Source: Hormiphora californensis
Lineage: Eukaryota > Animalia > Ctenophora
Direction of reading: 5' to 3'
DNA: 64,000 nt
Assembly: GCA_020137815.1 (NCBI GenBank)
Contig: CM035354.1
Location: forward strand, 1,240,001-1,304,000
Shown here: positions 28,101 to 31,100 of the stretch, one piece after another
Layout: every line of letters starts with the position of its first letter
How positions within the stretch are numbered: position 1 is the first letter of the stretch
Translations under genes and position numbers: made by a program
Notes under the pieces: generated by a model
Seen by the model: the letters and a program-made list of their open reading frames with translations, nothing else
What the model was told of the DNA's origin: nothing
The model's database searches: none

Positions 28101-31100
28101 AGTGATTAAAATGTGTTAATATTAACACAAATTTCTAACACTAACACTAACCTACTTTATTCAGGTGCCAACTGGACTTGTTTAGCCAGATGTGTCAGGA
28201 AAGGCAGTACCTGGCCATTAATAGTCTGAAAGGACAACTCTCAGTTGATTTGTTGCTCAGGTATGTGTTACTTGATCTACCGTTACTTAATAAACCGTTA
28301 CTTGATCTACCGAACCCTCACGGCGCCATTCACACAAGGCGTTACTCGAGTTACAGTCCGGATACTGTACACAAAAAATTTCAATTAATTTTCACACCTG
28401 TTCACACCTGTATTACAGTCTGCATACCTTTTTACAATCCCAATCCCTCTACCCTGATGAATTATACAAATCAAACCAATTCGCCCCCTCCCTACAGATA
28501 TTAATAATTTCTTTGTTTGTTGTTGTGTAATACATGTGAACTAAACCTGACACCCAAGGTGTTTCAGAGGTGTTAAGGACTTCTTTGTTTGTTGTTTGTT
28601 GGACAATACAAATGAACTGTCATCCCAATACCCAAGAGTAGTCAAGCTACACAAATCTCACCCCCAATTCCCCTACAGATGCATGTCCGAAGATTCCATG
28701 TGATCCTAAACCCCTTTACTAAACCTTAATTCCCACCATACAGATGCATGTCAGACGAGGACCTGTCCCATGATCTGCGGGCCTCCTTCAGCAGGCTAAT
28801 GCTCCACATGCACGTTGACAGGGAACCTCAGGAGAACCACCAAAGCGTGAAATATGCTAGGTTGTGGAGCTTCATTCCTGATGAGATTACAATTAATAAC
28901 TACTGTCCACCCGCGGCACAGGTAACATTTTGGGGTGGTGTGGGGTAGAGTGGGGTGGGGTGGGGTGGGTTGGAGTGGGGTGGTGTGGGGTGGGGTGAGG
29001 TGGGGCGGGGTGGGGCAGTGTGGTGGGGATACTGTTATTTGGAAATACAGCTAGATAGGAGAAGGTAATGTTTCAAACAGTAATGTTTCACATATAATAA
29101 TGCTCGGGTGTGCCAGTTATTTCCTCGTTCAAGAGAGATAGGTTTCTAACCAACATCCCCCATGATGAAGGGAGAGATACATGATTCTCTACTGCTCTCT
29201 CTCTCTCTCTCTCCAAATCATCTAAATCCCCCATGATTTGCAGGGAGAGATACCCTTCTCTAGGTTTCTAACATCCCCCATGATTTGCAGGCCCCAGAGA
29301 AGTTTAACCACGTGACAAAGTTTGTACGTGATTACCTGGGGGACTTGGAGTCCAATACTTATGTGTTCAGGGACTCCCAACAAAACAAACTCACTTATGA
29401 GGTAATTACTAAATAGTGTTAGTAGAGTATACCGGCGGCCTCTAGGGTTGAACAACATATGTAAACACGTTGGTTTGTTAACAGTTTCGGCGTCAACGCC
29501 TTCTTCAGAACTCAAATTAATTTGTTTAAAGTAGTGTTGAAAAGTTTGAAATTAATTTGAGTTCTGAAGAAGGCGTTGACGCCGAAACTGTTAACAAACC
29601 AACGTGTTTACATATGTTGTTCAACCCTAGAGGCCGCCGGTATACTCTACTAACACTATTTATCTTCATGCGGCTCATAAACATTTGGCCAATCCAATCT
29701 TTGTTAGGTAATTACTAGTTTATAATTAGTTAATTAATTGGTTCAATCAACACGACCTACAAATATAAGTTTAATTATACTGGGACGCTGTTGGTACTAT
29801 AGATGGCACTACCATGCTATGGGACAGCTGTAATACAGCTATGGGACAGCTGTAATACAGCTATGGGACAGTCCTAATACAGCTATGGGACAGTCCTAAT
29901 ACAGCTCTTTTATAGTCTTTACTACACCCATGCTGTACAAGTAAAGCGCTAATACCATTATCAAATCTCTCATTGCAGGTTATCAACCTAGCAAAACACC
30001 TCGTTTATTTTGGGTTCTTCGGATTCAAGGACCTCCTAGCTCTGACAAACACTATGCTCTCTATCTTGGACTGTGTTAAAGGACCGGGAAAAGGTATAAC
30101 ACCCTCATTTCACCTCCTCTATCATGTTTCACCTCCTGTTTCACCTCCCCTGTTTCACGTCCTAATTTCCTTCGGCAAACCATTGAAACTCTTAGTAATA
30201 TGGTAATATGTGTTTCATCAAGTGTTACCATTACCATATAACTTTTACCCAACAAGAATAACTGCATAATGTTTGATTGCCAGCCATGCCACCACCTCGC
30301 ACATTGGAGTTTCCCGGTGTAAACACATTACACAATCAACTCGGGGGGGGGGGGGTACCCTGCTGCTGCACGTGTAATACTGGGAAACAGCCACATACCC
30401 TACTTCACGTGTAATACTGGGAAACAGCCACACGTGTGGAAATAAGTGGCAGCTGAGAGACACGTGAAAGGGTTAAAATAGGGTGTAATAGGTTATAGGC
30501 TACTTCACTACTACACGTCATGTAAGGGTAAATCTATCAGAATCATCACTACTAACACGTGTCTCACTGTCTCACATCAATAAATTTTAACCCAAATCCC
30601 AATGTGTCACCGATCCAAATATAAGAGACGCTATATGTAGCACGTCATGTGTGGCTGCCATGTGAACTAAACCTGACGCCCAAGGTGTTTCAGAGGTGTT
30701 AAGGGCGATCAGTGATCTGGGAGCAGCCGTTACTAACATGGTGTTAGGGGGAGAGGGAGGGGCACCAGCTACACCCCCGTAAGTTAAACTGAACACCTTC
30801 CCCCTTCACTCTTCAGAAACAAACCAGAACTACACCCTCTCAACCCGGACCCCTCTTTCTCTCTGAACCCCACGTCCGGAACTCCTCAACTCATCTCTCC
30901 AGTGTATCCCTCTTTCTCTCCCATTAACCATATTGTATTACTCTTTCTCTCTCTCTCTCAACCCCATGACTAAACCCCATTGGCCAGTATAATATCCCCG
31001 TCTAAACCTGTACAAACAGGGCTCCAGAAGCGGCCCCGCCTGCAGCAGCACAAGATGCCCCTCCTGAATCTGGGGCAGCAGGAGGAGGTGATGAGAGCGG

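Follow-up and report, generated by a model that had tools for sequence, protein, structure and literature searches.

An inverted-repeat insertion in an IP3-receptor intron

The window analysed here is a 64,000-nucleotide stretch of Hormiphora californensis contig CM035354.1. It contains two exons of an IP3 receptor, a calcium-channel gene, and the intron between them carries a 296-bp insert. The features of the host gene and of the insert body are as follows.

29294..29401, plus strand: IP3-receptor exon, in-frame part, ITPR1 residues 831-865 (E 0.03; 14 of 14 matches are IP3 receptors)
29400..29411, plus strand: left target-site duplication (TSD), 10-12 bp, across the host exon/intron boundary
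29410..29510, minus strand: left arm, element body without tail
29549..29551, no strand: 3-nt microhomology at the head-to-head junction (AAA, complement of TTT at 29521-29523)
29562..29662, plus strand: right arm, element body
29663..29705, plus strand: tail, 43 nt, right arm only
29706..29717, plus strand: right TSD, second copy of the AG/GTAATT donor
29979..30089, plus strand: next IP3-receptor exon, ITPR1 residues 866-898 (E 2.5e-8)

Because the flanking exons match consecutive ITPR1 residues, the insert lies 8-10 nt inside an IP3-receptor intron, which is 577 nt long with the insert and 271 nt long without it. The insert is bounded by two copies of AGGTAATTACTA, at 29400-29411 and 29706-29717; a search of both strands of the window found this 12-mer only at these two positions, and a match at one given site has a chance probability of about 1e-7. 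The insertion target contains GTAATTAC. An earlier note on this DNA had described two head-to-head arms of 114 bp; they lie at 29410-29523 and 29549-29662, 25 nt apart and 100% complementary. That note also gave a 12-bp TSD; the duplication was confirmed, but its length is better stated as 10-12 bp, since the left copy and the left arm share 2 nt, the final ones of the copy and the opening ones of the arm. The 43-nt tail at 29663-29705, carried by the right arm, was absent from the earlier note. A single contig in each of the runs X2 and X4, which come from two studies, spans the right junction of the insert (28-29 nt of tail plus flank) with 0 differences, at an overlap below the 31-letter bridging threshold and with the possibility that X2 or X4 is the window's own source. 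The insert is a real feature of this intron.

Several other observations concern the host gene and its surroundings. A possible 146-nt cryptic exon, which would be frame-shifting, spans 29562-29707 (plus strand) between the AG that ends the leader described below and the duplicated AG/GTAATT donor. The 114-bp hairpin begins 8-10 nt from the real IP3-receptor donor. Downstream of the IP3-receptor exons and on the same strand, 38184-47461 (plus strand) holds long ORFs for an LDL-receptor-repeat GPCR and SRCR-like proteins, which may be nested in an IP3-receptor intron if the gene continues near 52400. A 437-aa open frame at 53033-54346 (minus strand) encodes a voltage-gated potassium channel (BTB_2 and Ion_trans).

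The spliced leader and the hammerhead-like motif

The centre of the insert carries a spliced leader (SL) and a hammerhead-like motif, and the same leader heads a LINE elsewhere in the window.

29511..29551, minus strand: SL, 41 nt (all but the first 3 of the 44 published for Hormiphora), with a 12-bp palindrome inside
29549..29561, plus strand: last 13 nt of the SL, ending in AG, at the opening of the right arm
29561..29595, plus strand: minimal type I hammerhead-like motif, predicted cut at 29592/29593 (descriptor match; Rfam not significant)
29477..29511, minus strand: mirror copy of the hammerhead-like motif (descriptor match)
29614..29705, plus strand: possible start of a parent ORF, putative (ATG; frame open for 30 codons, as far as the tail end)
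17338..21765, minus strand: LINE (APE-type endonuclease and RT), headed by the same 41-nt leader

On the minus strand, positions 29551-29511 form a 41-mer that is followed by TTCTGAAGAAGGCG. All 41 of 41 nt are identical to the last 41 nt of the 44-nt H. californensis SL printed in PMC8527503. The earlier proposal that this leader is an SL was therefore correct, and it is a ctenophore SL; its description as complete has to be changed to nearly complete, because the published SL is 44 nt long. The right arm opens with the last 13 nt of the leader (29549-29561), also in agreement with the earlier note. According to PMC8527503, the SL is present on at least 56% of Hormiphora Iso-Seq reads and occurs 718 times in the Hormiphora genome, and a related motif occurs 491 times in Mnemiopsis.

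The 41-mer was found at one further place in the window, on the minus strand at 21765-21725. The LINE that it heads encodes ORF1 and a 946-aa endonuclease/RT ORF2, with a leader of 41-42 nt and a first ATG 158 nt past the leader; it has no clear duplication, as the sole TSD-like match is a 13-nt TTA repeat near 16914. Two more LINE RT ORFs, at 31845-35360 (minus strand; 1171 aa with endonuclease) and at 15867-16919 (plus strand; a 350-aa fragment), showed no leader match. An exact 16-nt piece of the leader (positions 7-22 of the 41-mer) lies beside a GA repeat at 60818-60833 (minus strand; E 0.016 within the window) and is possibly a decayed leader or a chance match. A 29-mer of the SL gave 0 matches in viral contigs. 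SL words reached a depth of 2,200 in run X16, which we guess to be an RNA run; X16 gave no cover on the element body, a result that does not bear on expression.

In two unrelated elements, the insert and the LINE, the SL ends exactly at its terminal AG, and a GT donor follows in neither; in the insert the next letters are TT, and the GT donor and SL intron of an SL RNA gene are absent. Since the leader stops at its terminal AG with no GT donor next to it, neither element is an SL RNA gene. The 5' stops of the SL in the two copies lie at most 1 nt apart (nt 4 in the insert and nt 3-4 in the LINE). These junctions bear on an explanation in which trans-splicing would be unnecessary, namely that the donor element sat inside an SL RNA gene and was transcribed from its promoter, in the manner of NeSL or SLACS. 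Retroelements that target SL genes exist, NeSL and SLACS among them, and the target of the insert is itself an AG/GT donor. However, neither an SL intron nor duplicated bases lie between leader and element, and the unrelated LINE shares the exact junction. The end of the target exon also resembles the SL end no more than chance would give (27 of 433 AG/GT sites score as well), for which reason SL-like targeting was rejected. We consider an SL-gene donor highly improbable.

The hammerhead-like motif reads, in order, CUGAAGA, an extra A, a 4-bp helix II closed by G-C, GAAA, a C-G pair with a 1-nt loop 3, a GUU triplet and a 3-bp helix I. Its core starts 2 nt past the leader, and the outer G of helix I is the G of the leader's AG. 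Within the window a minimal-hammerhead descriptor matched only in the two arms, with 0 matches in 40 random 64-kb sequences; this speaks for rarity and not for activity, since the descriptor was written with the motif known. Rfam gave 0 matches at gathering over the window and 32 sub-threshold matches around the insert, mostly to generic hairpin models; the hammerhead score, 16 bits (E 1.6), was not significant. An extra nucleotide after position 9 and a G10.1-C11.1 pair mark PLE (Penelope-like element) minimal hammerheads as described in PMC4209133, and the insert motif has both.

The folding prediction does not favour an active hammerhead form. In the monomer ensemble helix I formed with probability 0.00, and no active fold came out of the dimer cofold, results that count against the reading that we prefer below; the predicted fold energies were unremarkable (z -0.3 to -0.6). 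Specific masking of the hammerhead core by the SL was rejected, because 32 of 300 shuffled leaders pair equally well and the core is equally paired without the leader.

PLE insertions are described as having inverted pLTRs (pseudo-LTRs), a 30-40-bp tail on one side and an 8-10-bp TSD (PMC3846280; PMC8557442), the TSD length of 8-10 bp being that of A. vaga in PMC3846280. The insert has a head-to-head inverted repeat at its 5' end, a minimal hammerhead in the pLTR (in sequence pattern only), a one-sided tail of the PLE type and a short TSD of 10-12 bp at an AT-rich site, all as in endonuclease-bearing (EN+) PLEs. Its tail of 43 nt slightly exceeds the published 30-40, which counts against our preferred reading. 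On this anatomy the insert is likely to belong to the EN+ PLEs.

A LINE enzyme might instead have retroposed an SL-capped RNA by twin priming, with no PLE enzyme involved, and the window does hold the SL-headed LINE and two other LINE RT ORFs. Twin priming yields non-overlapping inverted parts, whereas both arms of the insert copy the same 114 nt. The insert also has no poly(A) or simple-repeat 3' end, and its one-sided tail and hammerhead are PLE marks. This makes LINE twin priming very unlikely.

The repeat family and the search for a parent element

Four of 16 runs were compared with 29524-29810, a region that contains one arm. The element body is highly repeated in organism A, where an exact 49-nt contig had a depth of 2,642 against 112 for its flank in X2, and a variant contig had a depth of 5,007 against 95 for its flank in X4; some organism A contigs may derive from the insert's own left arm. 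The family is multicopy. X2 record 9 is a diverged variant that aligns through the SL tail, and because it differs at 6 of 52 nt it represents another copy. Ahead of 29549, the loose ends of 4 X2 contigs give upstream SL sequence (agreement 0.9); those of X4 (6 contigs, 0.66) and X8 (2 contigs, 0.65) do so less clearly. In organism B the junction of leader tail and hammerhead was present at a depth of 204, against 6-8 for its long contigs.

A perfect long inverted repeat with a TSD could also represent the TIRs of a DNA transposon (a MITE or foldback element) or a small-RNA hairpin, and Rfam miRNA models do score the hairpin, although every such match falls below the gathering score. The diverged variant that aligns through the SL tail argues against this interpretation, as do the X2 loose ends, which there read the SL in direct orientation. 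Moreover, the right arm ends 43 nt short of the TSD and is not flush with it, and the centre of the hairpin is a product of RNA processing. TIRs or a small-RNA hairpin are in our view extremely unlikely.

The main rival explanation is a non-autonomous, PLE-derived family whose DNA has the SL hard-wired into it, after a single capture from a trans-spliced RNA; copies of such a family may now be transcribed by read-through and trans-spliced again at the relict leader's own AG. In its favour, the SL-hammerhead junction occurs in several sequence variants and in two organisms. Relative to the depth at a point 20 nt inward, the summed depth at the junction was 30% (X2), 18% (X4) and 76% (X8), values that are not copy numbers. 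No strong loose end running past 29705 was present among the matches listed (n=18), and non-coding hammerhead repeats related to PLE pLTRs have been reported (10.64898/2026.07.22.740005). Against a hard-wired leader, the leader of the insert is identical to that of the LINE and to the published SL, so that drift is zero. A variant with a loose end at 29613 keeps the putative frame with three synonymous changes, a weak indication from 2 contigs, and the upstream sequence of X4 record 18 is non-matching. Overall, a hard-wired SL appears unlikely.

The letters upstream of the AG bear on the same question. Four of 24 DNA pieces, among the matches listed, align exactly up to the AG at 29560, and 3 of these 4 start at the AG, a start that a fork at 29590 could equally cause. 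X4 record 18 (1 of the 24 DNA pieces among the matches listed) has 8 unaligned letters before the AG; this one contig hints that a genomic AG acceptor may stand in place of the SL before TTCTGAAGA. No acceptor sequence was seen ahead of the AG among the matches listed, which counts against our preferred reading.

The earlier note had called the insert Penelope-like. The anatomy supports that assignment in the inverted pair, the one-sided tail, the AT-rich TSD and the minimal hammerhead; a parent with a PLE-clade RT and GIY-YIG was not found in the ORFs of the window, the metagenome loci or the protein search, which counts against our preferred reading. No GIY-YIG was present in the 105 ORF pieces of the window that were scanned. 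A metagenome scan for the hammerhead core returned 10 loci with no similarity beyond the 25-nt core; five of them (L002-L005, L009) show the same layout of the core in AT-rich sequence, and the remaining five, which are GC-rich, appear to be chance matches within coding DNA. In L002 and L005 (near 2500), both AT-rich contigs, a second, different minimal hammerhead lies beside the searched core. The protein search with the putative N-terminus gave 0 matches, which is weak evidence given the short queries. Of two loose-end variants recovered for the putative ORF, one stays in frame but meets a stop at codon 2, and the other is out of frame; both count against our preferred reading.

Proposed origin of the insert and comparison with known systems

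We consider it probable that the insert is a run-off copy, made by a PLE-type RT, of the 5' end of a sense, SL-capped (trans-spliced) PLE RNA. In this scheme, the parent PLE transcript would be trans-spliced at an acceptor 2 nt ahead of the hammerhead core, placing the capped SL where the upstream pLTR had been. The endonuclease would then cut AT-rich DNA with a stagger of 10-12 nt, and the RT would start within the RNA at two positions separated by 43 nt, some 100-145 nt away from the splice site. Running off the capped end, it would halt at SL nt 4, and the 3' end of the cDNA would anneal to SL sequence by 3 nt. The annealing partner would be either a second cDNA that had been primed at the other nick, or the same cDNA folded back, losing 43 nt on integration, and repair would complete the hairpin. 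The second-cDNA and fold-back routes both fit the sequence of the insert, which does not tell them apart. The insert is probably a dead-end copy, since it contains no long ORF and would be without the upstream promoter.

The shared 5' stop of the SL in the insert and the LINE is as predicted by run-off from a capped RNA. In one model in PMC3846280, whose authors call the matter open, a PLE primes its own copying from an antisense template. Within the left arm, the antisense strand stops at SL nt 4, where the 3-nt microhomology connects it to the right arm; this junction speaks against the antisense-template model, because a transcript made antisense from an SL-headed genomic copy lacks a reason to end at SL nt 4, an argument on template polarity that comes from one junction and one event. 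For the anole element, PMC11167929 reports two-strand nicking and extension at ATT motifs by the purified PLE protein, with the RT starting at two internal sites that bound the tail. These in vitro data already support priming at internal positions of an RNA that extends across the pLTR-ORF junction, which makes the present finding less surprising.

A different possibility is a self-renewing mini-retroelement without a promoter, in which the AG of the relict SL would serve as its own trans-splice acceptor, copies being re-capped in transcribed introns and moved by a PLE enzyme. If this were true, the short re-capped RNA would carry the sites at which PLE copying starts; splicing at helix I would also switch the hammerhead, leaving the capped RNA uncut. 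We regard such an element as decidedly improbable. Even when they are taken together, the rival explanations other than a hard-wired leader seem quite unlikely, and we retain run-off copying of an SL-capped PLE RNA as the preferred reading.

As the SL is added only to finished sense RNA, it would be a natural tag for both the template polarity and the processing of PLEs, and the insert would bear on which RNA strand PLEs copy. Ctenophore genomes would hold many SL-tagged copies, and PLE polarity could be tested by counting fold points. Our findings also suggest that retro-copies, as opposed to SL genes, make up part of the genomic SL copies reported in ctenophores (718 and 491). Because the insert is a short 5'-end product, it does not demonstrate that full PLE copies move as SL-capped RNA.

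The insert resembles A. vaga Pen2/Pen2a (PMC3846280) and anole Poseidon PAc (PMC11167929), as these are described, in its head-to-head inverted pLTR with a tail on one arm, its short TSD, its AT-rich target, the hammerhead near the 5' end and the palindrome near the inverted junction. Unlike those EN+ PLEs, it has no visible ORF body, the host SL replaces the pLTR upstream of the hammerhead, and the tail is 43 nt long. Published PLEs are described as typically keeping their introns (PMC3846280), whereas the insert looks processed. As in the account of D. virilis Penelope in PMC4209133, a very short helix I carries the splice junction at its 5' end; however, the D. virilis junction belongs to a cis intron, while in the insert the joined exon is a trans-spliced leader and the spliced form is present in DNA. 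A splice site at hammerhead helix I would therefore occur in a second, distant animal lineage.

The earlier note had further proposed trans-splicing as a general route for retroelement RNA. This idea is not new, because 30-31% of Hydra transposon Iso-Seq reads already carry an SL (PMC12220107), as do at least 56% of all Hormiphora reads, and in C. elegans the spliced Cer1 message carries an SL (PMC3315495). In the titles and abstract openings covered by our literature search, we found no description of an SL-bearing PLE insertion. Like the insert, the SL-tagged retrocopies of dinoflagellates (PMC6050394, PMC12014239) and the Hydra and Cer1 transposon transcripts are marked by a leader that is ordinarily added at the RNA level; unlike the insert, these three cases, by their descriptions, involve no PLE, hairpin insertion or hammerhead fusion. 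The non-LTR retrozymes of animals (10.64898/2026.07.22.740005) are, like the insert, short hammerhead-bearing repeats related to PLE pLTRs, but they are reported as tandem arrays depleted from introns, whereas the insert is a single, intronic inverted pair headed by an SL.
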